DNA of 15,132 bases, taken from the IMG/VR virus record IMGVR_UViG_2627853771_000002; one strand, written 5' to 3'. The first letter of the stretch is position 1. Each line of letters begins with the position of its first letter. Below the pieces are notes generated by a model. The model did no database searches. It was not told the DNA's origin and saw only the letters and a program-made list of their open reading frames with translations. Below are positions 1 through 13,220 of the stretch, piece after piece. The position numbers were made by a program, and so were the translations under genes. Source of the stretch: a virus (Duplodnaviria; Heunggongvirae; Uroviricota; Caudoviricetes).

Positions 1-798
1 TTAATGAACATTCGTCGCCGAAAACGAGTCTGTATCATTAGTGCGATGCAGTCTCTGCAAAGGATCTTGTTGATAAAATTGGCAGAAACGTTGCCACAAT
101 GAAGGGAAACGAGGAGCAAAAAGTTCTGGGGCGCTAAAGAAATATTCAGAAAGTACGGCAAAACATTCAGCAGGATCACTGGCAGCATAAGCATCAATGC
201 TCGCCGCATTCTCGCCAACCAATTCGATTTCTTCCTGAATGTTGTTCATTGCAGCATGAAGATCGTGTTCCCAGCCAGCAACCTCACGCAACGGAATAAA
301 GGGAACTCCGCTGGCGCGATCGCCGTTACGGGTGTCCAGCTTATGAGCGACTTCATGAATAATCAGGTTAAAACCAGAAGCATCAAAAGAATCTTGTATA
401 TCCAACCAGTTCAAAACGATAGGCCCTTGCTGCCAGCTCTGACCTGACTGAACAATACGTTGGTTATGCACCAGACCGATATCGTCTTCCCATTCATCAT
501 CGACCACAAATGGCGCAGGATAAATTAAGACTTCATGAAAACCATCCAGCCATTCCAGTCCTAACTCCAGAACGGGTAGGCAAAATAGAAGTGCTATCCG
601 GCAGCTTCTTAATGAATCCAGTTCAAAGCCCTGTAAAGGAACAAGCCGCTTTTGCTGTAAAAAACGTTCGGCAAGAGTGACTAATTTGCTTTGTTCCTGT
701 TCCGTCAGACCCGTTAAAAGGGGGATCGATAGTGCTTCCTGCCAGGGAAGGGCAGTTTGATGTGCTGATTCTTGTACTTTCCAGGGCCACTTAATCAT
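1..798 (-). CDS. mtfA: MtfA-like zinc-dependent peptidase (Mlc titration factor A), complete
   Basis: Minus-strand ORF 1..837; likely start is the ATG at 798-796 giving MIKWPWK..., stop TAA at 3-1. Contains an HExxH metallopeptidase motif (HEVAH). Sequence recalled as E. coli MtfA/YeeI; not searched. Confidence 0.85.
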
Positions 799-891
799 CG
801 TTTTGCTCGCAAACTCGTCACTTGAACAAAATTGCACGGACAGGGACTGTTAAAATGCCAAATTTCCTGGCATCATGGCAACCATCTGAAC

Positions 892-981
892 GGAGAGATG
901 CCGGAGCGGCTGAACGGACCGGTCTCGAAAACCGGAGTAGGGGCAACTCTACCGGGGGTTCAAATCCCCCTCTCTCCGCCA
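892..981 (+). tRNA. serU: tRNA-Ser, anticodon CGA
   Basis: GGAGAGA...TCTCTCC acceptor stem, discriminator G and terminal CCA; anticodon loop CUCGAAA gives anticodon CGA; long variable arm typical of class II tRNA-Ser; TTCAAATCC T-loop. Folded by eye. Confidence 0.9.
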
Positions 982-1028
982 CTATTCAAACACTTACAGC
1001 ATTCCCTTTCAGTGACCTGCATCCCGAT

Positions 1029-1062
1029 GAGAAAAATTGAGAAAATCCACTGAGAAAAATTC
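1029..1062 (+). repeat. Three direct copies of GAGAAAA(A)T between the tRNA and the integrase gene; candidate integrase arm-type binding sites
   Basis: gagaaaaatt at 1029-1038, gagaaaatcc at 1039-1048, gagaaaaatt at 1053-1062, lying 48-81 bp past the tRNA 3' end and just beyond the integrase stop. Confidence 0.3.
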
Positions 1063-1093
1063 TAGCGCCGAAGCATGCTCCGACGCCAAAGAA

Positions 1094-2068
1094 TCATCTC
1101 ATTTTCTTGTTCAACGTGGGGCTGATTTTAACTTTCCTGTCGTAAACAAGTACCTGTGATTCTGTCTTATGACCACTGAATTTTTGCTTATCCCTGCCAG
1201 ATCCTTCATAGTCTGAGATCCCTTTAGCCTTTAGATCATGGAAGGTGCAATCAAGTGGCCTACCAAGTTCTTCAGAAGCCGCGTTTCTCGCTTTTCTCCA
1301 TGCTTCATTAAATCCCTTGTATGAATAACGCTCACCATACATTGTCCTGATAACAGGGCCATCCTGTCCCCATTCCCTGCAAATATCCACAGCCGCACTA
1401 AGACGCTCAGTCCAGGCTTTGATCTGTTTAATACCAGTTTTACCTTGCTGTATGAAAATTCCTTTATCAAGAATCTGATTCCAGTTCATTTTAAGAACAT
1501 CAGATACCCTTGCAGCGCAAAGATACGCAATTTCCATCGCGGCTTTAACTGCAGGTGTCGCATGAGTGAAGATAGCTATGTACTCTTCATCAGTTATGTA
1601 GCGGTCGCGCTGGGGTTTAGGAAACTTATCGACACCAACACACGGATTACCTGGTACATAACCACGCTGATAACCCCAGCGGTATACACGAGACATTGAA
1701 CTATGCTCGTGATTAGCCTGAACACGGCTTCTTTTACCACGTGCATCCATGTAGCGTCGGACGTGTTCTGGTTTAATGGCCTTTGCTTCTGCATCGCCGA
1801 AAACCGCTAACAAGTATTTTTCATGTGCCAGGTAATCTTTTTGTGTCCTGGGGGCAAGGTCTGCATAGTCAGCACTATTTAAAAATTTTTTCCACAATTG
1901 TTGAAAGGTGAGTAGTTTTTTTCGACCTTCAACGACTTTCTCGTAAGCTAACCAAACCTCCGCTTTAGAAGCGTTTGCTGGGGCTAGATTCTCGGTAGTA
2001 CCTCCTGGCTTCCAGTAGTAACCGGAAGGGCGGAAAAACACACCCTTCGGCATCCACTCATTCAGCAT
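1094..2068 (-). CDS. Tyrosine-type site-specific recombinase (phage integrase)
   Basis: Minus-strand ORF of about 324 aa; C-terminal region carries an integrase-like motif (FHDLKAKGISDY). It ends 113 bp from the tRNA 3' end and reads toward it, the usual prophage arrangement. Start taken as ATG at 2068-2066 (TTG at 2071 is also possible). Confidence 0.85.
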   Translation of the reverse strand: MLNEWMPKGVFFRPSGYYWKPGGTTENLAPANASKAEVWLAYEKVVEGRKKLLTFQQLWKKFLNSADYADLAPRTQKDYLAHEKYLLAVFGDAEAKAIKPEHVRRYMDARGKRSRVQANHEHSSMSRVYRWGYQRGYVPGNPCVGVDKFPKPQRDRYITDEEYIAIFTHATPAVKAAMEIAYLCAARVSDVLKMNWNQILDKGIFIQQGKTGIKQIKAWTERLSAAVDICREWGQDGPVIRTMYGERYSYKGFNEAWRKARNAASEELGRPLDCTFHDLKAKGISDYEGSGRDKQKFSGHKTESQVLVYDRKVKISPTLNKKMR

Positions 2069-2216
2069 CAATCACATCTTGGGATACAGACGCTTGGATA
2101 ATATCTGCTTCGCTATAGTCGCCCCGCATAACCAGAAAACGAGCCTCATCGGAGCAGAGGTAATCAACTGCCCCATCAAATTTCCCCTTGCTGGTTGGTT
2201 TGGTTACGTTGCTCAT
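2058..2216 (-). CDS. Small hypothetical protein (52 aa) in the excisionase position upstream of the integrase
   Basis: ATG at 2216-2214 preceded by GGTGGA; translation MSNVTKPTSKGKFDGAVDYLCSDEARFLVMRGDYSEADIIQASVSQDVIDAE. Its start overlaps the upstream stop as ATGA and its end overlaps the integrase start. Below the 60-aa cutoff of the ORF track. No recognisable Xis motif. Confidence 0.4.
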   Translation of the reverse strand: MSNVTKPTSKGKFDGAVDYLCSDEARFLVMRGDYSEADIIQASVSQDVIDAE

Positions 2217-2347
2217 GCTGTCCACCATTCAATAAACATGCAGATACCAACGGTTACTACGGCAATCAGCACCCAGCAGATCACATCTAACAGGGCGGCG
2301 AGCCGACGCAGGGTGTATTTGCTGTAATTCTCAGGTTCAAAATTCAT
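2213..2347 (-). CDS. Small single-pass membrane protein (44 aa)
   Basis: ATG at 2347-2345 preceded by GGAGG; translation MNFEPENYSKYTLRRLAALLDVICWVLIAVVTVGICMFIEWWTA with a hydrophobic C-terminal half. ATGA overlap with the ParB-like stop and with the next ORF's start. Confidence 0.4.
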   Translation of the reverse strand: MNFEPENYSKYTLRRLAALLDVICWVLIAVVTVGICMFIEWWTA

Positions 2348-3129
2348 TGCGCCTCCCCAAGCACCCAGCGCAGAGCCTCGGCATATTCGCCACTGGCATC
2401 TTCGAGTGCTTTTGTAATTTCTTTGCGGGTTTTCAGGCGCGGCTTTGCATCACCGAGGATCTGACGCTGACGCCGAGCTTTTTCATGGCCCGTGGTGCCG
2501 GCGGTCGCTGTCTCGATCTGCTTGACCTTCTCTCGTTGCTCTTCGGGTTTAAGCGATGCCAACTGACGCGCCTGGGTAACAGTGACCGTTCCGGACTCCA
2601 CTGCATCGCGAACAGCTTGGGTGGCATCCAGCAGTGACAGAGTTGCGCGTACGGTCTGGACACTCACGCCAAACATCAGCGCTAAATCATCCTCATCGTG
2701 CCCGCGCTCCAGCGCATCAGCCATTTTCTTTGCTCGGCCTAGCGGCGTATCTGCCTGGCGGATTTCGTTAGCACTTACCATCGCCTGCGCCATGCGAATG
2801 GCAGAGCCACGTTTAGGGACTCCCGGAACCAGTAACGGTTCTTTGCCCAATTTTGACAGACGCTTATTGGCTTCCAGTGTATGGCGCACACGCTGGCGAC
2901 CATCAACCACACAAGACAGCCCTGTTTCCGGGTCTTTCCAGACGATAATCGGCTCAAGAACGCCCTGGTCCATGATGTTCAGCACCATTGCCTCGCTGAT
3001 AGGCAGGTGGATACGCTCATCGTAAAGCGGGTGCGTTTTGTCGGTAACCAGGTGCAGTTTTTCAGGTTCAAACGCTAAAACGTTCGTTTTGCCACTCGCG
3101 CCATATACCAGCTTTGAGTCTTTAGCCAT
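2344..3129 (-). CDS. ParB-like nuclease-domain (ParB/Srx fold) protein
   Basis: 261-aa ORF with a ParB N-terminal-domain-like core (EPIIVWKDPETGLSCVVDGRQRVRH) and an HTH-like segment (DDLALMFGVSVQTVRATL). Start ATG at 3129 shares its A with the upstream gene's TGA (TGATG). Confidence 0.7.
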   Translation of the reverse strand: MAKDSKLVYGASGKTNVLAFEPEKLHLVTDKTHPLYDERIHLPISEAMVLNIMDQGVLEPIIVWKDPETGLSCVVDGRQRVRHTLEANKRLSKLGKEPLLVPGVPKRGSAIRMAQAMVSANEIRQADTPLGRAKKMADALERGHDEDDLALMFGVSVQTVRATLSLLDATQAVRDAVESGTVTVTQARQLASLKPEEQREKVKQIETATAGTTGHEKARRQRQILGDAKPRLKTRKEITKALEDASGEYAEALRWVLGEAQ

Positions 3130-3428
3130 CAGAGAGCCTCCACGTTACGGAAGCTGGTGGGGCAAATTGCCTTCAAATCGCGCATAGCCTCTAGAACATG
3201 CATATTTGTGCGATTCTTGGTGTGTCGCTCGGTCAGGCGATCACACTCTTTCGCCCATGATTTGACCTCTGCAAGAAGGGCGTCACGTTCGGTGCGCGTC
3301 TGGCGCAGAGCTACATTCGAAACATCGAGGACGGTAGCCAGTTCCTTGATGATTGCTGCCTGTTCTGGTGGCATAGTTTTGGCTATTTCGTACGCCTGTT
3401 TAATCAGTTGTTTTGCTGTCTTAGCCAT
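3129..3428 (-). CDS. Hypothetical protein (99 aa), first gene of the leftward operon
   Basis: ATG at 3428-3426 preceded by GGAGAA; translation MAKTAKQLIKQAYEIAKTMPPEQAAIIKELATVLDVS.... The ORF track extends to 3479 only through a TTG. No family recognised. Confidence 0.55.
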   Translation of the reverse strand: MAKTAKQLIKQAYEIAKTMPPEQAAIIKELATVLDVSNVALRQTRTERDALLAEVKSWAKECDRLTERHTKNRTNMHVLEAMRDLKAICPTSFRNVEAL

Positions 3429-3721
3429 CTTTTGTTCTCCATCTGACGCTCTGCAACGCGTAAATTTAGGGTGCAGCAACCCAACCCATGAGAATGGGTG
3501 AATAGCTGGTTAAAATTTCTTGCTGATGGGGGACCGCCACTGCAATGGCGGTACGTTAGTTCTCCACACAACACAGAAGAGCACCTGCGGCCGCAAATCC
3601 GCTCGGGCGGATTGTGTTAGGGCACGTCACTCGGTGGTGCTCTGATGTCTTTTGTAAAAGGGCGAACCAGAAACAATGGGGAAACTGGTGCCGCCAAGAT
3701 GACATAGTCCATCAGACTCAC

Positions 3722-3772
3722 TTGATGTTAGGTTATGCCTAATGTCATGTCAATAGGCTTAGCCTAATGTTG
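3722..3772. promoter_or_regulatory. OL-like operator pair with an overlapping leftward promoter
   Basis: Two palindromes: ttaggt-tat-gcctaa (3728-3742) and ataggc-tta-gcctaat (3753-3768). On the minus strand a -35 TTGACA (complement of 3748-3753), a 17-bp spacer and a -10 TAACAT (complement of 3725-3730) overlap them. Confidence 0.5.
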
Positions 3773-3781
3773 GTCGGCGGT

Positions 3782-3807
3782 CAAAAAAAATCCCGCATAA
3801 GCGGGAT
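3782..3807 (-). terminator. Rho-independent terminator ending the repressor operon (hairpin plus T-run on the minus strand)
   Basis: Stem ATCCCGC/GCGGGAT (3790-3807) with loop ATAA; an A8 run at 3782-3789 on the plus strand is a T8 run after the hairpin on the minus strand. Lies between the native stop of the nuclease-like gene (3838) and the operators. Confidence 0.5.
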
Positions 3808-3837
3808 TTGTGTGAAATAAAGCTAGTGTTTTTATGA

Positions 3838-3882
3838 TTATGGACGACGCTTTCTGAAATTCTCATCATTCTGTACATATTG
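3838..3882 (-). other. Orphaned native 3' end (14 codons plus stop) of the IS1-interrupted nuclease-like gene
   Basis: Joining the reading frame of CDS 4660-5769 across the target duplication continues ...L-QYVQNDENFRKRRP-stop, with TAA at 3840-3838. Confidence 0.45.
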
Positions 3883-3891
3883 TAAAGAATC
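3883..3891. repeat. IS1 target-site duplication, left copy (TAAAGAATC)
   Basis: The 9 bp immediately left of the IS1 end are identical to 4660-4668. Confidence 0.85.
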
Positions 3892-3946
3892 GGTGATGCT
3901 GCCAACTTACTGATTTAGTGTATGATGGTGTTTTTGAGGTGCTCCA

Positions 3947-4222
3947 GTGGCTTCTGTTTCTATCAGCTGTCCCTCCTGTTCAGCTACTGACGGGGTGGTG
4001 CGTAACGGCAAAAGCACCGCCGGACATCAGCGCTATCTCTGCTCTCACTGCCGTAAAACATGGCAACTGCAGTTCACTTACACCGCTTCTCAACCCGGTA
4101 CGCACCAGAAAATCATTGATATGGCCATGAATGGCGTTGGATGCCGGGCAACTGCCCGCATTATGGGCGTTGGCCTCAACACGATTTTACGTCACTTAAA
4201 AAACTCAGGCCGCAGTCGGTAA
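3947..4222 (+). CDS. insA: IS1 InsA
   Basis: 91-aa [43 protein letters not shown]..., recalled as IS1 InsA. Confidence 0.9.
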
Positions 4223-4644
4223 CCTCGCGCATACAGCCGGGCAGTGACGTCATCGTCTGCGCGGAAATGGACGAACAGTGGGGCTATGTCGGGGCTAAAT
4301 CGCGCCAGCGCTGGCTGTTTTACGCGTATGATAGTCTCCGGAAGACGGTTGTTGCGCACGTATTCGGTGAGCGCACTATGGCGACGCTGGGGCGTCTTAT
4401 GAGCCTGCTGTCACCCTTTGACGTGGTGATATGGATGACGGATGGCTGGCCGCTGTATGAATCCCGCCTGAAGGGAAAGCTGCACGTAATCAGCAAGCGA
4501 TATACGCAGCGAATTGAGCGGCATAACCTGAATCTGAGGCAGCACCTGGCACGGCTGGGACGGAAGTCGCTGTCGTTCTCAAAATCGGTGGAGCTGCATG
4601 ACAAAGTCATCGGGCATTATCTGAACATAAAACACTATCAATAA
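4141..4644 (+). CDS. insB: IS1 InsB (expressed as an InsAB' fusion by -1 frameshifting)
   Basis: 167-aa [28 protein letters not shown]... in the -1 frame relative to insA, overlapping its 3' end. Confidence 0.85.
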
Positions 4645-5769
4645 GTTGGAGTCATTACCTAAAGAATCAAGGATTAAACCTGAAATCCTTAATACATCCT
4701 CGGGATGTTCAATGAAAATACGATTGTTATCATGTTCAAGTCCGGCTCTTTTAATTTCATTACCGGTTATTTCATTGATATCAATTGGTAACTGTATGTT
4801 TGAGCGATTCTTCTTGTCATAATAGCGAACCAGCCAGCGGTTTGTTTTTCCTTGGAAAAGAATAGAGTAATAGGACTCTGTATCTTTGGCTTGAAGTTCG
4901 TATGCAGGGCCTATAATAGAACAGATTTTTTCAAATAAAATTCTTTCATTATAGGTTGTTACTATGTTGGGGTTCTCTGCATCGACAATATCTGCGCGCT
5001 CATCAATTACATTATTTTCAGTTACATCAGCAGGGGATTCTAATTCAGGAATAGATGTTCTTGATGAAAGACCAGAAACAACCATTTCACTTACTGACCT
5101 CTCTACGGCCTGCCTCACCAATGGAGTTATTGTTTCTATAAATCTTTGATTTAATTGACGACCAATATTTGCTCGTCCTGCAACATATCTAACAAATTCA
5201 TGATCTACTTCCCGAAGGCTTGTACTCACGACTTTAACAAATGCAGAAATATAAACACTCTCTTCTGCAAGGGTTCTTAGGGCCTCTGGTTTGAATTTGT
5301 CATGGCGGAATCTAAATAATTGCTCAGCATCAGAATCTTTAATGTCATCCATCATGATTCGTAAAAATGGCGTTGAATCCATTATATTTTTTTCATTGAG
5401 ATCCGTAAAAAAGCGCCATTCAATTCCATTAGTAATTGCTGATATTGTCACCTCAGGAGTAGAATTAAAATACCTAGATAATTGAGGACAATGGTTGTCC
5501 ATTTTTTCTTTACAACCTTTGGCCTCAATAAACATAACGGGAACACCTTGGCAGAATAGAGCATAATCTACACGCTCACCCACTTTCACACCAGGGAAGT
5601 CCGCACCATATTCAGCTTTGACTTTTTGCGGATCATATGCGTTAAAGCCTAGGATGTCCAAAAAAGGAAGTATCAAAGCCTGCTTGGTTGTCTCTTCCGT
5701 TGTGCAGTGTTCTCTAACATTTTTAACATGTTCAATGTGATTTTTAAGACGTACTTTGAAGTTTTCCAT
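4579..5769 (-). CDS. Repressor-linked protein with an HsdR-N-like PD-(D/E)xK nuclease N-terminal domain and an uncharacterised C-terminal domain; 3' end replaced by IS1 sequence
   Basis: ATG at 5769 (MENFKVRL...) after GGAGGA. The first 130 aa or so follow the pattern I associate with the type I restriction HsdR N-terminal nuclease fold (D...VDYALF...[10 protein letters not shown]...QLSRY...TNG). Codons 4660-5769 are native; 4579-4659 are read from the IS1 right end. Lies downstream of, and on the same strand as, the repressor gene, inside the operator-bounded immunity region. Confidence 0.6.
4660..4668. repeat. IS1 target-site duplication, right copy (TAAAGAATC)
   Basis: Identical to 3883-3891. 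Confidence 0.85.
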
Positions 5770-5939
5770 GCATCCTCCATGCAAAGTGAAAACCTGCTGT
5801 TAAATCAAAGCAAGTCACAATCCCGGATAGGCTTCATACAAGCCAATCCCCCACAGGGATTGAGTTATGCAAGCGAATCAATCTCAGAGCTTTTAACATG
5901 TATGGAGCTTAGAGATATTGTCCGTTAGACCATATAAGC

Positions 5940-6416
5940 TTAAGCTCTGGCTTTCGTTTGTTTTTTTCCATCTTCCTCCTGCTCTGCCCATCTCCTTATC
6001 TTCATCTCTAATGAGTCTAAATATGCTTTAGCATCGCTATCTACCCAGCCAGGTATACGCTGTCCTTGCTCTAAGAGGACAAAATCAATGATAGCCTTTT
6101 TTTCTCTCGAAGCCTTATTATAGAGCTCGTCAATAGAACCATTTTTAACTATGGGATCTGTTGCGGGCTCACATGTATCAGTTAGCGGGTATCCCTTTAG
6201 TCCCCAGTGCTCGGGGCCCACAACATCAGAAAAGTAGTTCCAAAGCTCTGGTAGCTTCTCTTTCGATATGGAGCCTTTATTGATCCAGTCATGGATTGAT
6301 GGGGGTTTTATTTTGAAATGACGTGCGATTTCCGCCTTACTCTTGGCAGAACCTATTGAAAGCTTCTTGTCTATGGCCTGCTCGATCGCTCGGCCCAATT
6401 CTTTACCACTAAGCAT
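5940..6416 (-). CDS. CI/RacR-like helix-turn-helix repressor with no S24 peptidase domain
   Basis: 158-aa ORF with an N-terminal HTH-like segment (LSGKELGRAIEQAIDKKLSIGSAKSKAEIARHFKIKPPSIHDW); no Ala-Gly/Ser-Lys autocleavage features seen. Divergent from a Cro/YdaS-like gene across an operator-containing region. Confidence 0.7.
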   Translation of the reverse strand: MLSGKELGRAIEQAIDKKLSIGSAKSKAEIARHFKIKPPSIHDWINKGSISKEKLPELWNYFSDVVGPEHWGLKGYPLTDTCEPATDPIVKNGSIDELYNKASREKKAIIDFVLLEQGQRIPGWVDSDAKAYLDSLEMKIRRWAEQEEDGKKQTKARA

Positions 6417-6443
6417 TGCCTAATAATCCTCATAACCTATAGC

Positions 6444-6486
6444 TTAGGCAATTCCTATTGATTGTTTATTAGGCTTAGCCTAATAT
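6444..6486. promoter_or_regulatory. OR-like operator region with a rightward promoter
   Basis: Perfect 8+3+8 palindrome TATTAGGC-TTA-GCCTAATA at 6467-6485 and a degenerate copy at about 6444-6459. -35 TTGATT (6458-6463), 17-bp spacer, -10 TAATAT (6481-6486); the palindrome sits in the spacer. Confidence 0.55.
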
Positions 6487-6517
6487 CTGCTTGTGTGGAA
6501 ATCATAGGAATCCGTTT

Positions 6518-6781
6518 ATGAGAAGTAGCCTTGAAGCAATCAGTGAAGCCTGCCGCATTGTTGGGGGACAAGCCGCTTTGTCAAGGAATCTAGGCATCTC
6601 ATCACCAACAGTGAATCAATGGACAACGGGCATTAGGCAAATACCTGCGGAACGATGTCCTGCGATTGAGAAAGCTACTGGTGGTGCTGTCACCTGCGAA
6701 GAGCTTCGTCCTGACATTGACTGGGCCTATTTAAGAGGTGCAGCAATGCGAAAGCTTAATGTCACTGCATCAAATTTGTAA
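6518..6781 (+). CDS. YdaS/Cro-like HTH regulator
   Basis: 87 aa from the ATG at 6518 (AGGAA seven nt upstream). Motifs GGQAALSRNLGISSPTVNQW...IPAERCPAIEKATGGAVTCEELRPD match my recollection of the YdaS/Cro-type family. The ORF track starts at a TTG at 6491. Confidence 0.7.
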   Translation: MRSSLEAISEACRIVGGQAALSRNLGISSPTVNQWTTGIRQIPAERCPAIEKATGGAVTCEELRPDIDWAYLRGAAMRKLNVTASNL

Positions 6782-6809
6782 CTACCACCCGAGTTTGAAA
6801 GGAGTAGGT

Positions 6810-7262
6810 ATGAACCTCAAAGAAGTCGTGAAATCTATGTGCAAAGCATATCCAGGTGGGCGCGAAGCAATGGCTGGCGCACTGGGAATGACGGTGACGC
6901 AGTTTAACAACAACCTTTACGAGAAAAACGGCTGTCGTTTCTTCGAAGTCAGCGAACTGGAAGCGATGGAGGACATCTCGAATACATCTCACCTGGCTGA
7001 ATATTTTGCCCGCCGTCGTGGTGCTCTGCTGGTGGATGTTCCGCACCTGGAAGAACTGGACCGCGTGGACTTGTTTAGCCGGGCAATGCGTACCTCTGCC
7101 GCCAGGGGGCAGGTTGATCAGATTATCGAACAGGCGCTTGAAGATGGCGTTATTGAAAGGCACGAGGCCGAAGAAATCATGGTGCATCACCGCCGTCACC
7201 TGGCAGCTCGTGAAGAAGAGATTGCCGCAATCATCACGCTTTTTTCACGCAAAAAGAAGTGA
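6810..7262 (+). CDS. CII-like / YdaT-like regulatory protein
   Basis: 150 aa from the ATG at 6810 (AAAGGAG five nt upstream), directly after the YdaS-like gene as in Rac-type prophages. Family assignment is from position and general resemblance only. Confidence 0.45.
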   Translation: MNLKEVVKSMCKAYPGGREAMAGALGMTVTQFNNNLYEKNGCRFFEVSELEAMEDISNTSHLAEYFARRRGALLVDVPHLEELDRVDLFSRAMRTSAARGQVDQIIEQALEDGVIERHEAEEIMVHHRRHLAAREEEIAAIITLFSRKKK

Positions 7263-7289
7263 CGCCAGCGAGTTGCAGCTCCTGGCGTC

Positions 7290-8129
7290 GTGGCGTGTCG
7301 TTATCAGTGGAGATTACTAACGCATGAACAGTTTATCAACACAATACCGCAGGTCGCAACTTGTAGCGCGGCCAGTTCCTGGTGGAGCAGGGCCGGTGCA
7401 GTTCGTGTAGAGCCATTCGTTGGTGGTGGGTCGGTATTCCTGAACAGCGAAAAGCACGCAGATTACCTGCTGGCGGACGTTAACCCGGACCTGATTAATC
7501 TGTATCAGATGTTAGCGGTCGTGCCGGATGAAGTGGAATTGAAGGCCCGCTGGATGTTCGAGCACATGCGGTCACCAGAGCGCTATGAGCTGATCCGTTC
7601 CGAGTTCAACTCTCAGACGCTGGATGCTACTGAACGCGCAGCTGCATTCCTGTATCTCAACCGGCATTGCTTCAATGGTCTGATGCGCTACAACCAGGCG
7701 AACAAGTTCAATGTGGGCTGGGGAGGCTACAAGGCTCCGTATTACCCGATGGATGAGATGAAAGCCTTCGCGGCTATGGCGCATAACTGCGTATTCATGA
7801 CGGCTGATTACCGCCGGACAATCAGCCTGGCCGGGAAAGGGGATGTGGTTTACTGCGATCCGCCTTACGAACCGATGCCGGGAACAACCGGATTCACCGC
7901 CTACGCCGCTGGTGGTTTTAACTGGGAGAACCAGGTAGACCTGGCGAAGCAATGCGTATCAGCCTTTCACCGTGGGGCTCGGGTAGTGATTTCTAACTCA
8001 TCTGCACCGAAGGTTCTCGACCTGTACCGGGAGCATGGTTTTAACCTGCAATTCATCAACGCGCGCCGTTCGATCTCCTGCAAAAGCAGTACGCGGGAAG
8101 TCGCAAAAGACGTTGTAGCGATCCTTTAA
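7290..8129 (+). CDS. DNA adenine methyltransferase (Dam family, N6-adenine)
   Basis: Motif I EPFVGGGSVFLN and motif IV CDPPYEP; overall resemblance to E. coli Dam (FLYLNRHCFNGLMRYN, ISNS). The only in-frame start after the upstream stop is the GTG at 7290; the nearest ATG (7324) is out of frame, so the start is uncertain. Confidence 0.75.
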   Translation: MACRYQWRLLTHEQFINTIPQVATCSAASSWWSRAGAVRVEPFVGGGSVFLNSEKHADYLLADVNPDLINLYQMLAVVPDEVELKARWMFEHMRSPERYELIRSEFNSQTLDATERAAAFLYLNRHCFNGLMRYNQANKFNVGWGGYKAPYYPMDEMKAFAAMAHNCVFMTADYRRTISLAGKGDVVYCDPPYEPMPGTTGFTAYAAGGFNWENQVDLAKQCVSAFHRGARVVISNSSAPKVLDLYREHGFNLQFINARRSISCKSSTREVAKDVVAIL

Positions 8130-8138
8130 GGGGGCTAA

Positions 8139-8981
8139 ATGAAACTGACTTTACCATTTCCACCGAGCGTAAATAGTTACTGGCGCGCCCCGAGCAAGGG
8201 ACCGCTGAAAGGCAGGCATCTGGTAAGCGAGACAGGGCGCAAGTTCCAGCAGGCAGCGAGAGCGGCGATTATTGAGCAACTGCGGGCCGTTCCCCGGCCA
8301 TCCTCAGATCTGGCCGAGGTTCACATAAACGTTGTTGAGGGCGCGGGGCTTGAGCTTGATCCTGATGATGATTCACAGGTTCTTAAAGCGATTGGTGGCG
8401 GTCGCCTGCTTAATATTGTCACCTTTACTAAGTCAGGGACTTACACTCCAACTAAAGGGACGAAAAGAGTGCGGGTGAAAGTTTGGGGAGCGGGGGGAGG
8501 TGGCCAGAATGCTCCAGTTAGTGTGGGCGCATCTGGAGGTTGTGCTGGTGGATTTTCGGAAGGGTTATTTAATATTTCTGATAACGAAACTATATCTGTG
8601 ACGATAGGTACTGGTGGCAGTGCTGTTGCTGCTGGTGTCTCGTCTAAAGGCGGGAATGGTGGTGATACAAGGTTCGGGAGTTTAATCTCAGCTACTGGAG
8701 GGAGTGGTGGCGGGGCTACAGTTCCTGCTGGAGGTATCGGAAGTGGCGGGAACATTTTAAATATTACTGGCGAAATATCTCAAGGTGGTCTGTATTATGG
8801 TTCTGATGCTTTTATTGGCGGGGCTGGAGGATCTGCATTTTCATCAACGGGTGGCAATGGCCACTTCGGTAGTTCTGGCGATGATGGCGGTTTCCCCGGC
8901 TCAGGTGGTGCCGGGGGGAATGGTAACTATTCATCAGGAAAAGGAGCGAATGGTTTAGTTTACCTTGAAGAGTTTTCCTGA
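8139..8981 (+). CDS. RusA-like N-terminal region fused in frame to a glycine-rich, fibre-like C-terminal region
   Basis: N-terminus MKLTLPFPPSVNSYWR... resembles the RusA resolvase N-terminus (ITLPWPPSNNRYYR), and ...GGGRLLNIVTFT resembles the RusA C-terminus. From about aa 110 the protein is a GGxGG-rich tract of about 170 aa. ATG at 8139 follows AAGGGGG. Confidence 0.5.
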   Translation: MKLTLPFPPSVNSYWRAPSKGPLKGRHLVSETGRKFQQAARAAIIEQLRAVPRPSSDLAEVHINVVEGAGLELDPDDDSQVLKAIGGGRLLNIVTFTKSGTYTPTKGTKRVRVKVWGAGGGGQNAPVSVGASGGCAGGFSEGLFNISDNETISVTIGTGGSAVAAGVSSKGGNGGDTRFGSLISATGGSGGGATVPAGGIGSGGNILNITGEISQGGLYYGSDAFIGGAGGSAFSSTGGNGHFGSSGDDGGFPGSGGAGGNGNYSSGKGANGLVYLEEFS

Positions 8982-10051
8982 TTATTTTTGCTTTGAGCGT
9001 CCGCCCTTATTTTTGCTCTAATTTTAATTAGTGGCTTGTCTATTAATATTACACAAACGATCCCAAGTGCAATTGATATTGGGTAGCCTAATAAAAAGAT
9101 GGATAAGCCACGATTTTCACCACCAATAGCAAGCCATGCTAGAAATCCACCAAAATATTGACAAAGAAAAATTGGATAGGCCAGGTCACCAAACCACTTG
9201 AGTATTTTCTCAAGATGTATGTTTGTCTTTATTTTTAATAATACCAGGGTTGTAAACAATGCTATTACATTATTGGTGTAGTAAAGTATTATGTTGTACT
9301 GACCTAATGGATTAATTGTATATAAATGCCAATTGGTAATAAAAATCCCGATGCAAATAAATGTTATTAAAAAAGCTTTGTGTGGAGAAAGATACATAGC
9401 TTTGAACTTTCTATGGGCAAAATAACCCAGAGAACCCATGCTAAAAGGAAGTGTTGCAGCAAGGAATGGGAAATACGCCATATCAAAAGAATGGTGTACT
9501 ACATATACGTAAGCATGATAAAGCAGTGAAAGCAGAATCGACGTAATGGCTGTAAATTTATTTCGGGCTATGAAAAGCCACAATAAAAAATAACATGTTA
9601 TCTCAACACCCACTGACCATGATGATGTGACTATTCTGAATCTATTACCATCAATAGCAAAGTGATAAATGGATGAAAAGGCACCGAATGGATTTGCTAC
9701 AGCATTATCAGAAAGGAAAGCCCAGGGGAAGATTAAGAGGTTTCCTAATAAATCTCCAGGTAAGAAATTGCCTGTCCAGTTTGAGTGGAATTCCTTTGCG
9801 GATGGAATTAATTTTATAATAAGAAAGCCCATGACGAGAAAAAATATATATGCCGGGAATAACCTCAGTATTCTATTTTTCCAAAACATAGAGAAGTTGA
9901 ACTTGTATGTTTCATGCAAAATGTATGTTATTAAAAAACCACTAATAACATAGAAGCAATTCACTGCAAAGTTGCCAAGTGCAGGTATGCGAGCCGTTAA
10001 GTGAAAAGCAATGACGCACGATGCCAAAAAAAACCTTATTAGGCCAAGCAT
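8960..10051 (-). CDS. Acyltransferase-3 family integral membrane protein (O-antigen O-acetyltransferase-like, Oac/OafA type)
   Basis: 363-aa very hydrophobic ORF with motifs typical of the family (RFFLASCVIAFH, FYVISGFLITY); strongly AT-rich relative to its flanks. Its 3' end overlaps the convergent glycine-rich ORF by about 22 bp. Confidence 0.75.
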   Translation of the reverse strand: MLGLIRFFLASCVIAFHLTARIPALGNFAVNCFYVISGFLITYILHETYKFNFSMFWKNRILRLFPAYIFFLVMGFLIIKLIPSAKEFHSNWTGNFLPGDLLGNLLIFPWAFLSDNAVANPFGAFSSIYHFAIDGNRFRIVTSSWSVGVEITCYFLLWLFIARNKFTAITSILLSLLYHAYVYVVHHSFDMAYFPFLAATLPFSMGSLGYFAHRKFKAMYLSPHKAFLITFICIGIFITNWHLYTINPLGQYNIILYYTNNVIALFTTLVLLKIKTNIHLEKILKWFGDLAYPIFLCQYFGGFLAWLAIGGENRGLSIFLLGYPISIALGIVCVILIDKPLIKIRAKIRADAQSKNNQENSSR

Positions 10052-10314
10052 TATTTTATCTCCGCGCCAATATCGCGCATTTTATTTATTACATTGTTAA
10101 GTTGCTCATCAGACAGAACAAGCTGAGCTGCAATATAAAACAGTATGTGTCTTGACATTACCCTGGGGCTCTCTCCGCCAGTGTATTTCCGCCATTGGCT
10201 ATCGCTGGCTACACCTGCGAGCCCTGCCATTTGGTTTCCGGAGTAATTTAGTGCGGATTTCAGTCTGGCTAAATCTTCCTGCGTTGGAGGGGTGTATTTA
10301 TTTATTAAAATCAT
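10051..10314 (-). CDS. Small XRE-type HTH protein co-transcribed with the acyltransferase
   Basis: 87 aa from the ATG at 10314 (track ORF starts at a GTG at 10338). HTH-like segment LARLKSALNYSGNQMAGLAGVASDSQWRKYTGGESPR. Its stop overlaps the acyltransferase start (TAATG). Confidence 0.5.
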   Translation of the reverse strand: MILINKYTPPTQEDLARLKSALNYSGNQMAGLAGVASDSQWRKYTGGESPRVMSRHILFYIAAQLVLSDEQLNNVINKMRDIGAEIK

Positions 10315-10415
10315 TCTCTTATTTAACCGTTTAAACACGTAAGGCGATGTTAGCCCTGAAGGGGCGGGGCGTCAATCTTAATTGCTTCATTGAAAAGATG
10401 AAGACAGGAACAGGT

Positions 10416-12410
10416 ATGGACAAAAGATATAATACCGGCAATCCAAGACCTTCAAATAGCATGAAGGATCTGAATGATAACGCCCTGGCGTACGATGATT
10501 TCCTGAACAGCGAAAGCGATACTTTTATAGATCGTTTTGGTAACGCCCAGGATACGATAATTGGGGCTACTAAAAAAATGGCAGCTGCTACCGACGCTGT
10601 TATTGATGAAGCCCGCCAAAACCTGATCCCTCTCAGCCGGCAGTACATGACGCTGGCGGCGGCGCAGGCGGATATTGCGAATATTCCGGCAGGTTCAACA
10701 ACCTATGTCCGCAGTCAGGACGGAAGCTCTCTGGCCGATGAGTATATCAACCTCGCTGGAACGCTGCAGCCAACCGGACGGCGGATGGTTCGTGACGACT
10801 ACGCATACCAGGTATCGCCAGACAGCGTGACCCTGGCAGCATATGATCCGGAGACTTCCCGCGTGGCTCCATTTTTAAATACAAGCGGCAGATTAATTCA
10901 AATCGGTCCTGACGGAAAATATTACGAACTTTTAACCCAACAAGAATCCGAACTCTATGCGCTGGGCCGGGAGGGTTCTATACCGCAGTTTATTGGCGGT
11001 GAAAAAGTGTGGCGGATGACGGTTGATTCAACCACAAACCAGATCGTTGAAGCTTATACGGTTGGTGGGAAGCACTGGATTTACTCAGACGGTGGCCTGG
11101 TAGCTGTTAATAACGGAAATGGCGGTGGTGGTGGCGACGATGATGCCAACCAGCTCCCTGAGTATGGACTTCATTTGTCAGGGTCTACTGTGTACCCCTA
11201 CTCAGAGACAGTGCCTGTATGTTTTATCTTTGTGACTGCTGGGCAATCCAACGCTCGAGGATATTGTCCTGACGCCGATCAAACCATTGTCGCAGCAACG
11301 CCGATATATCCTGATAACGCTTTCATGCTCAGCGGCGGGGTTAGGCGTACAGGGACACGCAGCACTACTCTGGTGCCACTGGTTGAGGCAGTAAGTGGGA
11401 CAGATAAAGAAACGGCCGCAAGCGGCCTCGCGAACACCTTCATTCGCGATATGGCTGCAGCTACCGGAATCATGCCGCGCACGCTATCAATCGTATGTGC
11501 GCAGTCTGGTCAGGCTTACGAGTACCAGAAACGGGGTAACCAGGTATATCAGTATCTGCTCGATTCAATCGAAGACTGCGTAACGGCCTGTAAAGCACGC
11601 GGCTGGCTGCCGATTGTTCTCTGCGTTGACTGGATGCAGGGAGAGTCCGACGAGGACTGGTCAGGATTACGAGAAGGAATGTATGAATCACGGATGAGGC
11701 AGTACCAGAGACAAATCACCAGCGACATCATCGCAAGAACGGGTCAAAACGAACCGCCGATTATCGCCATTACCCAGCTGGGGTATGTCAATGACGGGCA
11801 TGGTGCATTTACAGGCCAGTACGCGCGACTGGCGTCGACGCGATTGCACGGAAAAGAGCAATTCAGGCTGGTCAATAGTTTGTACCAGTACGATTTTATT
11901 TCAGACGGTCTGCACTTGACGTGTGCGGGCCAGAACCGGCGCGGAGCAGCTGTGGCGAGAGCGCTTCTCCAGGAGTGGTTTACGAGCGGCTGGTCAGGGA
12001 TGGTTCCGACCAGTTTCGTGTGGAACTCACCCACGCAGATACAAATCAATGTCCCAGCGTATACGAACCTGGTGCTGGACACGACTACGATCAACACCTC
12101 CGGTCTGGCCAATTACGGCTTTAGCTACACGGATGAGACTGGTGCTCCACCTGCTATATCGAGCATCGCGATCAGCTCGGACGGCAAGGGCGTGCTGATT
12201 AACCTGGCGACCGCCCCCTCTGGACGTTTTGGGCGCGTTTCCTATGCGACAGCAGAAAACCCACTTCAGAGCGGCGCATCTGTAAAACCTTCCGGGCGGA
12301 CTCTTGGTGCAAGAGGGTGTGTTCGATCTTCCGCTGGAATCATATGGGTGTATGACACATCCGTGACTCTTTACGACTGGCTCCCCGCTTTTCGTATTAA
12401 CGTTTTCTGA
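10416..12410 (+). CDS. Tail-fibre/tailspike-like protein with an internal SGNH/SASA-type carbohydrate esterase domain
   Basis: Esterase block motifs in order: GQSN (VTAGQSNARGY, nt about 11241-11252), QGESD (DWMQGESDED, nt about 11631-11651) and DxxH (SDGLHLT, nt about 11904-11918). A Gly/Asp linker (NGNGGGGGDDD) precedes the domain. Start taken as the ATG at 10416 (AGGAACAGG upstream); the maximal ORF begins at 10347. Confidence 0.55.
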   Translation: MDKRYNTGNPRPSNSMKDLNDNALAYDDFLNSESDTFIDRFGNAQDTIIGATKKMAAATDAVIDEARQNLIPLSRQYMTLAAAQADIANIPAGSTTYVRSQDGSSLADEYINLAGTLQPTGRRMVRDDYAYQVSPDSVTLAAYDPETSRVAPFLNTSGRLIQIGPDGKYYELLTQQESELYALGREGSIPQFIGGEKVWRMTVDSTTNQIVEAYTVGGKHWIYSDGGLVAVNNGNGGGGGDDDANQLPEYGLHLSGSTVYPYSETVPVCFIFVTAGQSNARGYCPDADQTIVAATPIYPDNAFMLSGGVRRTGTRSTTLVPLVEAVSGTDKETAASGLANTFIRDMAAATGIMPRTLSIVCAQSGQAYEYQKRGNQVYQYLLDSIEDCVTACKARGWLPIVLCVDWMQGESDEDWSGLREGMYESRMRQYQRQITSDIIARTGQNEPPIIAITQLGYVNDGHGAFTGQYARLASTRLHGKEQFRLVNSLYQYDFISDGLHLTCAGQNRRGAAVARALLQEWFTSGWSGMVPTSFVWNSPTQIQINVPAYTNLVLDTTTINTSGLANYGFSYTDETGAPPAISSIAISSDGKGVLINLATAPSGRFGRVSYATAENPLQSGASVKPSGRTLGARGCVRSSAGIIWVYDTSVTLYDWLPAFRINVF

Positions 12411-12419
12411 GGATAAAAA

Positions 12420-13220
12420 ATGAGACTGATTTACACACTAACTGGACTGAATAACCCCTTACTCCCTGTGTACTCACAAACAGCGGCAGAGAAAGCGATC
12501 TCAGAACTATCCCCATCAGTATGGACACCAGTGAAGACAGAGTTTCTAAAAATGGGGTCTGGTGCAAAAGTAGTAGCTATCTCTAACCGATTAGATGGCG
12601 GACTTTTCAAGTCACTGGAGACCCTCGAGCCATCCACAAAGCTGAATGGTTCTGTTTTGCAGGGGCTTAATTTCTCCGGTGCATCCGGCATGGCTGGTGA
12701 TACGGCGGTGGTTATGGACGCAAACATCAATACTTTTGCATTCATCTATCAGCTGCCAGGTGGGGCGCTTCCGGCTACGCCACAGGACAGAGCGGTTATC
12801 GCAACCCAGGAAAGCACACCTCATGGCGTCGGCATTCGTACAACGTCAGCAGGTTCATTCCCGATTTTTCTGAATGGAGGGATCGAGGCCGATCTGGCAT
12901 TTACTCCTAACAATATAGGGCAATCTTTATTCTGCGCTGTAGTTATGTGCTCTAACAAGGCTGCTGGATCCTATGCAATTGCATACCAGCGGTCAGATCA
13001 GTCTGCAGTGACCAGCCGACAAGTGACGGGCTATACAATCCCAGCGTATAGCCCGTCTCAAAAAATGAGTATTGGCGGAGCAGGCAATGGTTCAGTGTCT
13101 CCGTTAACATCCGTTTTGTCAGAATGTTTGGTTTTCCCCGGCAAATATGCATATGGGACCAGCACACTGGATGTCATCCTGGCATATCTGATGGAGAGGA
13201 TTGGAAAAATCACGGCCTAG
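12420..13220 (+). CDS. Hypothetical 266-aa protein co-transcribed with the fibre/esterase gene (possible fibre partner or assembly protein)
   Basis: ATG at 12420 lies 6 nt after GAGGA and 9 bp after the upstream stop. No recognisable motif. Confidence 0.5.
   Translation: MRLIYTLTGLNNPLLPVYSQTAAEKAISELSPSVWTPVKTEFLKMGSGAKVVAISNRLDGGLFKSLETLEPSTKLNGSVLQGLNFSGASGMAGDTAVVMDANINTFAFIYQLPGGALPATPQDRAVIATQESTPHGVGIRTTSAGSFPIFLNGGIEADLAFTPNNIGQSLFCAVVMCSNKAAGSYAIAYQRSDQSAVTSRQVTGYTIPAYSPSQKMSIGGAGNGSVSPLTSVLSECLVFPGKYAYGTSTLDVILAYLMERIGKITA

Follow-up and report, generated by a model that had tools for sequence, protein, structure and literature searches.

The window analyzed here is a 15,132-nucleotide stretch of Caudoviricetes DNA (IMG/VR record IMGVR_UViG_2627853771_000002) that matches the chromosome of Escherichia coli PCN061 at 100%. 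The gene under study, on the minus strand of this window (open reading frame [ORF] 4579-5769), encodes a nuclease and directly follows a racR-type prophage repressor gene. We assign a probability of about one-half to the reading that its product is a stand-alone restriction-type DNA endonuclease, carried as cargo of low guanine-plus-cytosine (GC) content in the repressor operon and serving exclusion or defense in lysogens. A first interpretation made without database searches (here called the sequence-only reading) had placed a single-gene nuclease in a repressor-linked immunity position, and this is borne out by the anatomy of the locus and by the invariant catalytic residues of the protein.

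The nuclease and its gene

The N-terminal domain is an HsdR/type IIG-IIL-like PD-(D/E)xK nuclease in which every catalytic residue is intact. The protein matches Pfam HSDR_N (PF04313) at 54.2 bits (cutoff, 25.1; E value, 2.2e-14) and HSDR_N_2 at 25.0 bits (cutoff, 25), and the domain is predicted to have the restriction-endonuclease-like alpha/beta fold. The catalytic core (5518-5568, minus strand) comprises D68 (5566-5568) and E82-A-K84 (5518-5526) and is followed by the QxxxY motif Q96-LSR-Y100 (5470-5484), in agreement with the HsdR-N-type pattern that had been proposed for the N terminus. Among 125 full-length representatives with pairwise identities of <50%, these five residues (D68, E82, K84, Q96, and Y100) are 100% conserved, together with K29, E53, and G115, so that the catalytic residues are not only present on alignment but invariant. 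Judged by this conservation, selection keeps the restriction-type nuclease catalytically competent. The gene product belongs to the HSDR_N/PD-(D/E)xK superfamily and to no narrower known class.

The family is very large. PHROG 4225 (“endonuclease”) matches over the full length (E value, 2e-152), and 3529 cluster representatives were found at an E value of ≤1e-3, 360 of them at ≤1e-30, nearly all with lengths of 340 to 400 aa. The sequence-only reading, which proposed a candidate undescribed exclusion or defense function, underplayed the size of a pan-phylum family already annotated as “type I restriction endonuclease” or, in PHROG 4225, as “endonuclease.” To name it “type I restriction endonuclease (subunit R),” as databases do, is nonetheless misleading. 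Identity with a type I HsdR was rejected, as the protein has only 384 aa and no superfamily 2 (SF2) helicase/translocase domain (no ResIII or Helicase_C match), and the HsdR equivalog NCBIfam PRK11448 is missed by far (14.2 bits; cutoff, 729). No hsdM or hsdS neighbor was found in the window or in the ~20 homologous loci examined.

The ORF at 4579-5769 was confirmed on the minus strand; a call from a TTG start extends it to 4579-5784, and the ATG at 5769 (MENFK...) is the start in all homologues. Codons 1 to 370 of the native gene occupy 4660-5769 (minus strand), as assigned from the translation, the HSDR_N match, the AlphaFold models, and 100% identity to the gene of Klebsiella phage KpF5. 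After codon 370 the gene is interrupted by a 768-bp IS1A insertion (3892-4659, plus strand), which was recognized from its 23-bp terminal inverted repeats (3892-3914 and 4637-4659), its length, and the NCBI annotation of an IS1A family transposase; the transposase lies on the plus strand, opposite to the nuclease gene. The element is flanked by a 9-bp target-site duplication, TAAAGAATC (left copy, 3883-3891; right copy, 4660-4668), and it has displaced the true last 14 codons (371 to 384; QYVQNDENFRKRRP) and the TAA stop codon to 3838-3882 (minus strand), the continuity of which with the rest of the gene is given by intact copies in KpF5, AB66, and S1-INA-02-B. The ORF as it stands ends in an IS1-derived chimeric tail of 26 codons plus a stop codon (4579-4659, minus strand; translation and NCBI annotation). 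RefSeq entry WP_244471455.1 (396 aa; “type I restriction endonuclease”), although listed as intact, is this gene-IS1 chimera, with its last 26 residues derived from the inverted-repeat end of IS1.

The rebuilt native protein of 384 aa is 100% identical to the product of the intact KpF5 gene (WP_004184742.1), so the reconstruction offered earlier (the codons at 5769-4660 joined to the displaced end) was correct, and the exact rebuilt sequence occurs on at least 1000 contigs, mostly from Klebsiella pneumoniae. The window copy, which is without its last 14 codons and lies inside a defective lambdoid, Rac-like prophage integrated at tRNA-Ser beside mtfA, is probably impaired or inactive. The sequence-only reading was right to see a strong candidate gene but made too little of the IS1 damage and of the defective prophage remnant around this copy.

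AlphaFold2 models, built on a 37-sequence alignment, predict an architecture of a nuclease domain (aa 1 to 160; 5290-5769), a helical spacer of ~70 aa (161 to 232; 5074-5289), a disordered acidic linker of ~25 aa (233 to 258; 4996-5073), and a C-terminal alpha/beta domain of ~120 aa (259 to 380; residue 259 onward at 4660-4995; all on the minus strand). The two terminal domains are modeled with confidence and the helical region with low confidence. The predicted nuclease domain is HsdR/BpuSI/DrdV-like. The C-terminal domain, modeled alone with a predicted local distance difference test (pLDDT) score of 93 and a predicted template modeling (pTM) score of 0.84, has the predicted “double-wing” fold of YdhG, the C-terminal domain (CTD) of T4 MotA, and YjbR. 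It had been stated that the C-terminal 250 aa match nothing. The C-terminal domain has no Pfam match, and PDB sequence searches with the protein and with whole-protein and C-terminal-domain profiles gave nothing meaningful, but the statement needs correction for predicted structure, which covers residues 161 to 232, 233 to 258, and 259 to 380. The fold is shared with the MotA CTD, YjbR (DUF419), and YdhG (DUF1801) at an identity of just ~10%, and some proteins of this fold, frataxin/CyaY among them, are not DNA binders. On fold similarity, the C-terminal domain may bind DNA, and the contact expected of a double-wing domain would then fall on a basic beta-hairpin that carries the conserved residues W312 and R315.

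Position beside the repressor

Directly upstream of the nuclease gene, the racR-type repressor gene (158 aa; 5940-6416, minus strand) was assigned by annotation and by 100% identity to the “Rac prophage repressor” position of KpF5. The two genes are separated by a 170-bp spacer (5770-5939, minus strand) that carries a GGAGGA Shine-Dalgarno sequence at 5773-5778 and in which neither a terminator nor a consensus promoter was predicted on the minus strand. An OR-like cluster of three operators (TAGGCnnnGCCTA; at 6410, 6445, and 6470, together 6410-6482) lies between racR and a divergent ydaS/cro-like gene (6518-6781; Pfam YdaS_toxin/P22_Cro for 6518-6778). At the other end, OL-like operators of the same type, TAGGCnnnGCCTA, at 3729-3741 and 3754-3766 (3725-3766, minus strand) overlap a PL-like leftward promoter, TTGACA-17-TAACAT (3753-3725, minus strand). 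The palindromic operator has 6 matches in the window against 1.0 expected, a count reached in 0 of 200 shuffles. An intrinsic terminator on the minus strand, with a 9-bp stem and then a T-run (3809-3788), is found 29 nt past the native stop codon. racR and the nuclease gene are thus a block between OR and OL, as cI-rexAB is in lambda, and the context that had been described from the sequence (same strand, downstream of the repressor, between operator clusters, and followed by a terminator) is present in all its parts.

In unrelated phages from at least four phyla (Proteobacteria, Firmicutes, Actinobacteria, and Fusobacteria), homologues come after a repressor gene and share its strand. The nuclease gene is linked to the repressor at the Rac prophage repressor position in KpF5; the order is repressor, 128-aa ORF, nuclease gene, and integrase in Streptococcus IPP25; cI, nuclease gene, and integrase in Fusobacterium FNU_1P; and repressor, nuclease gene, metalloprotease, and, farther on, integrase in Corynebacterium Juicebox. 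It is found in the lysogeny operon in Clostridium CWou-2020a and Lacticaseibacillus P7.1. A protease gene precedes it in Acetoanaerobium and Enterococcus phages (repressor, M78 protease, nuclease gene) and in Lacticaseibacillus prophages (helix-turn-helix [HTH] gene, Peptidase_M78, nuclease gene, and, farther on, integrase). Salmonella Rac-like prophages have the order HTH_3 repressor, nuclease gene, small ORF, kilR, and gam, and E. coli STEC384 has the same arrangement.

In 52 of 76 IMG/VR loci for which upstream sequence was available, the immediately preceding ORF is on the same strand and encodes a repressor, which is RacR type in 28, cI (HTH plus S24) in 21, and short HTH_3/CI in 3. These three types are mutually unrelated. 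The GC content of the nuclease gene is ~37 to 38%, versus 44 to 55% in its neighbors. An AT-rich, repressor-linked, and patchily placed gene fits mobile cargo expressed in lysogens. A homologue of ~72% DNA identity in E. coli EC11 and ~28 other genomes (locus L010, 4544-5704) is flanked by baseplate genes in a myovirus-like prophage and is distant from any repressor.

The analogy to the rexAB/sieB slot drawn in the sequence-only reading agrees with two further arrangements. SieB (PF14163; E value, 8e-20) holds the equivalent position, on the opposite strand, beside a RacR of 61% identity, and in the Salmonella Rac-like prophages it is the nuclease gene that lies between the repressor and kilR. 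Proteins of 173 to 203 aa with a ClpX-type C4 zinc finger (PF06689; E value, ~2e-8) and an otherwise unknown body are found in the post-repressor position beside RacR homologues of 62 to 64% identity (L138, 4195-4716; L140, 4225-4836) and form another uncharacterized cargo family. Four sites within the repressor gene of STEC384 (L009, 6001-6411), an allele type that is rare in E. coli, have exact 33-nt matches in the annotated clustered regularly interspaced short palindromic repeat (CRISPR) arrays of another 54 complete E. coli genomes; E. coli spacers are thus directed at the immunity repressor of a type of prophage in which a nuclease homologue is present.

Insertions, mechanism, and alternatives

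The racR-spacer allele occurs in 10 of 5426 complete E. coli genomes, always within this prophage remnant and at a single chromosomal site, and in none of the 10 is the racR-nuclease unit undisturbed. Four independent insertion sequence (IS) events were distinguished: IS1 after codon 370 in PCN061 (the window), IS1 at ~codon 88 to 90 (window 5499-5507) in AB66, IS3 at 57 to 64 bp upstream of the ATG (5826-5833) in S1-INA-02-B, where it separates the gene from racR, and ISKpn26 in place of window 3827-5709 (codon 21 to just past the stop codon) in seven genomes, including 13P484A and STS73-1-E. A fifth event, an IS3-family element of ~1.2 kb at ~codon 275, affects a 93%-identical allele in another prophage (coordinates for the five events: window, 3827-5833; L007, 5849-6616; L008, 6175-7426; L091, 3810-5000; L135, 4983-6208). 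The gene is intact in 29 of 39 RacR-anchored IMG/VR loci, and Klebsiella copies are mostly intact. Of five IS events seen in the ~8-kb remnant, four fall within the 1.3 kb of nuclease gene plus spacer (P of ~0.004 by a rough binomial estimate assuming uniform insertion); because AT-richness and dispensability raise the insertion rate, this clustering is suggestive and not proof. The pattern suggests that the nuclease gene is costly to the cell once prophage control decays.

In the reading that we favor, that of a lysogen-expressed defense nuclease, the gene would be cotranscribed with the repressor, and the nuclease would hence be made in lysogens. The C-terminal domain would pick the substrate, and the simplest way would be DNA binding like that of the MotA CTD. 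The tethered nuclease would then cut close by, as type IIS and type IV enzymes do, perhaps as a dimer via the helical region. As there is no partner methyltransferase, the cell would be spared only if the target is something that the host lacks (such as modified bases or a DNA form specific to phages) or if infection activates the enzyme. The effect would be exclusion of superinfecting phages or of other DNA entering the cell, to the benefit of both lysogen and prophage. An enzyme that is costly under imperfect control would also explain its repeated IS knockout in the E. coli remnant.

Several points weigh against this reading. No experiment or paper linking the family to phage resistance was found, and PADLOC-DB v2 is without a matching model. 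Cotranscription with racR is read from the spacing and the lack of predicted signals. The nuclease gene is also carried as tail-module cargo and is found among baseplate genes in 21 of the 76 IMG/VR loci, so that linkage to a repressor is common but not obligatory. Finally, part of the IS enrichment may reflect mutational bias, as IS insertion favors AT-rich, dispensable DNA.

A wider claim, which we advance more tentatively, is that the gene could be the founding example of an unrecognized, pan-phylum group of single-protein prophage defense nucleases with a MotA-CTD/YdhG-like sensor, expressed from repressor operons and silenced by IS elements as a result of self-toxicity. Such a family would span thousands of prophages in Proteobacteria, Firmicutes, Actinobacteria, Fusobacteria, and Bacteroidota.

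The same architecture, with a nuclease, a flexible linker, and a separate putative DNA-binding domain, resembles that of free-standing homing and type IIS nucleases, and the protein might instead be a selfish homing-type endonuclease that cuts gene-less relatives and is copied in by recombination (marker exclusion), any benefit to the host being incidental. The patchy presence, low GC content, and varied positions of the gene (three repressor types, baseplate genes, and, in 1 of the 76 loci, after Q) would suit such an element. However, the flanks differ wholly between positions and phyla, which leaves no shared homing site. Activity during coinfection would be expected of a homing enzyme, whereas the strong linkage to the lysogeny operon fits expression in lysogens, and the family is highly conserved at full length across phyla. 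We therefore consider homing unlikely.

A role in lysogeny or maintenance of the prophage, whether as an addiction toxin under the repressor module or as a nuclease with an ImmR/ImmA-type induction switch, is likewise doubtful. It would account for the unusually constant place beside the repressor, for the adjoining M78 (ImmA-like) protease in Firmicutes, and for the repeated IS inactivation as the prophage decays, which would be expected of a toxin that is no longer controlled. Yet no small antitoxin-like gene is conserved next to the nuclease gene, whose neighbors vary (repressor, M78 protease, or baseplate genes, with HicAB nearby in one phage). In Enterobacterales, the gene comes straight after the repressor, without a protease, and some copies belong to tail modules that are remote from any switch. 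The accompanying repressors come from unrelated families, which argues against a specific protein partnership.

That the gene encodes an ordinary phage recombination, replication, or repair nuclease or is a decayed hsdR fragment, as its database name of type I restriction endonuclease (subunit R) and the filing of PHROG 4225 under “DNA, RNA and nucleotide metabolism” would have it, is highly improbable and largely refuted by domain content, position, and conservation: helicase/translocase domains and nearby hsdM/hsdS genes are lacking; a three-part architecture of 350 to 400 aa, kept with invariant catalytic residues in hundreds of clusters at 50% identity, is not that of a fragment; and the gene lies in the leftward lysogeny operon, whereas the same phages have their Gam, RecE, RecT, and exonuclease genes in early lytic operons, so that by position it is not a housekeeping, replication, or recombination nuclease.

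If the intact gene does block phages, it would be one of the most widespread prophage-borne defense genes, with relatives in at least five phyla, and would bear on phage therapy against Klebsiella and on the resistance of lysogens to superinfection. It would also join a restriction-type nuclease to a double-wing domain, a new combination that amounts to a minimal nuclease needing no methyltransferase, and the recurrent IS knockouts would provide a natural readout of its autoimmune cost.

Surrounding genes and known systems

The prophage retains an integrase gene (1094-2068) at the tRNA-Ser attachment-site gene (892-978), which is the sole match in an Rfam scan of the window, together with genes for a ParB-HTH protein, racR, the ydaS/cro-like gene, a cII-like gene, a Dam-like orphan methyltransferase, and a truncated rusA (8139-8328). 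Compared with KpF5, the remnant (window 1-8330) is missing the rdgC region and replication gene O, and the late genes are gone. The methyltransferase, a D12-class (Dam-like) adenine methyltransferase (7335-8129) and the only one in the prophage, is without linkage to the nuclease gene in other phages. A restriction-modification pairing of the two was rejected, as the methyltransferase gene belongs to the rightward early operon, has “orphan methyltransferase” as its best PADLOC match (259 bits), and is absent from the homologous loci in other phyla. Beyond the truncated rusA, at 8960-13220, are genes for an Acyl_transf_3 acyltransferase (8960-10051, minus strand) and a 664-aa sialate O-acetylesterase with a SASA domain (10416-12410), as well as a 266-aa ORF that matches no family; the three resemble cargo for surface modification or lysogenic conversion.

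In PADLOC-DB v2.0.0, which includes Shedu, PD-T4/PD-Lambda, Abi, and PDC/HEC models, the native protein matched 0 families at an E value of ≤1 and the chimeric ORF 0 at ≤0.01, and the neighboring genes gave nothing but the orphan methyltransferase. The earlier statement that the nuclease could be assigned to no named system thus holds for the PADLOC-DB v2 models. PD-Lambda-5 is reportedly a defense system with an HsdR-like nuclease component; PD-Lambda-5_A gave no match among the PADLOC models at an E value of ≤1. FS_HsdR_like, a DefenseFinder system, is reportedly a single-gene system with an HsdR-like nuclease encoded by phage-inducible chromosomal islands (PICI). No PICI context was present among the nuclease-gene contexts seen. 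No functional study of the nuclease family was found within the literature searched, of which Fillol-Salom et al. (2022), the source for FS_HsdR_like, did not form part.

By its nuclease domain, the gene product is kin to HsdR (EcoR124I and the Vibrio vulnificus fragment 3h1t) and to type IIG/IIL enzymes (BpuSI and DrdV/MmeI-like). It differs from these enzymes of 800 to 1100 aa in its length of 384 aa, in lacking an SF2 motor, methyltransferase and target-recognition domains, and M/S partners, and in its C-terminal domain, which is double-wing-like. Restriction enzymes of type IV (modification dependent) and type IIS include e14-encoded McrA, Mrr, PvuRts1I/AbaSI, and FokI. The predicted architecture of the gene product, one polypeptide with a nuclease tethered to a separate putative DNA-recognition domain and without a cognate methyltransferase, is compatible with theirs, and McrA on e14 is a precedent for carriage by a prophage. 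The putative recognition domain differs in not being an SRA, winged-helix, or HNH-associated domain, and there is no sequence similarity to these enzymes.

Salmonella BTP1 BstA and Gifsy-1 GiPD474 are products of defense genes in the immunity region (PMC8585504, PMC12724215). The nuclease gene is placed as immunity-region cargo would be, beside the repressor, between the operators, and in the orientation of lysogeny. The proteins encoded by rexAB, sieB, bstA, and the GiPD474 gene are unrelated to its product: RexAB and SieB are membrane proteins, GiPD474 has an ATPase domain, BstA belongs to another family, and none is an HsdR-N nuclease. Overall, the layout of the protein is like that of type IIS and type IV enzymes, and the genomic logic of the locus is like that of rexAB, sieB, bstA, and GiPD474.

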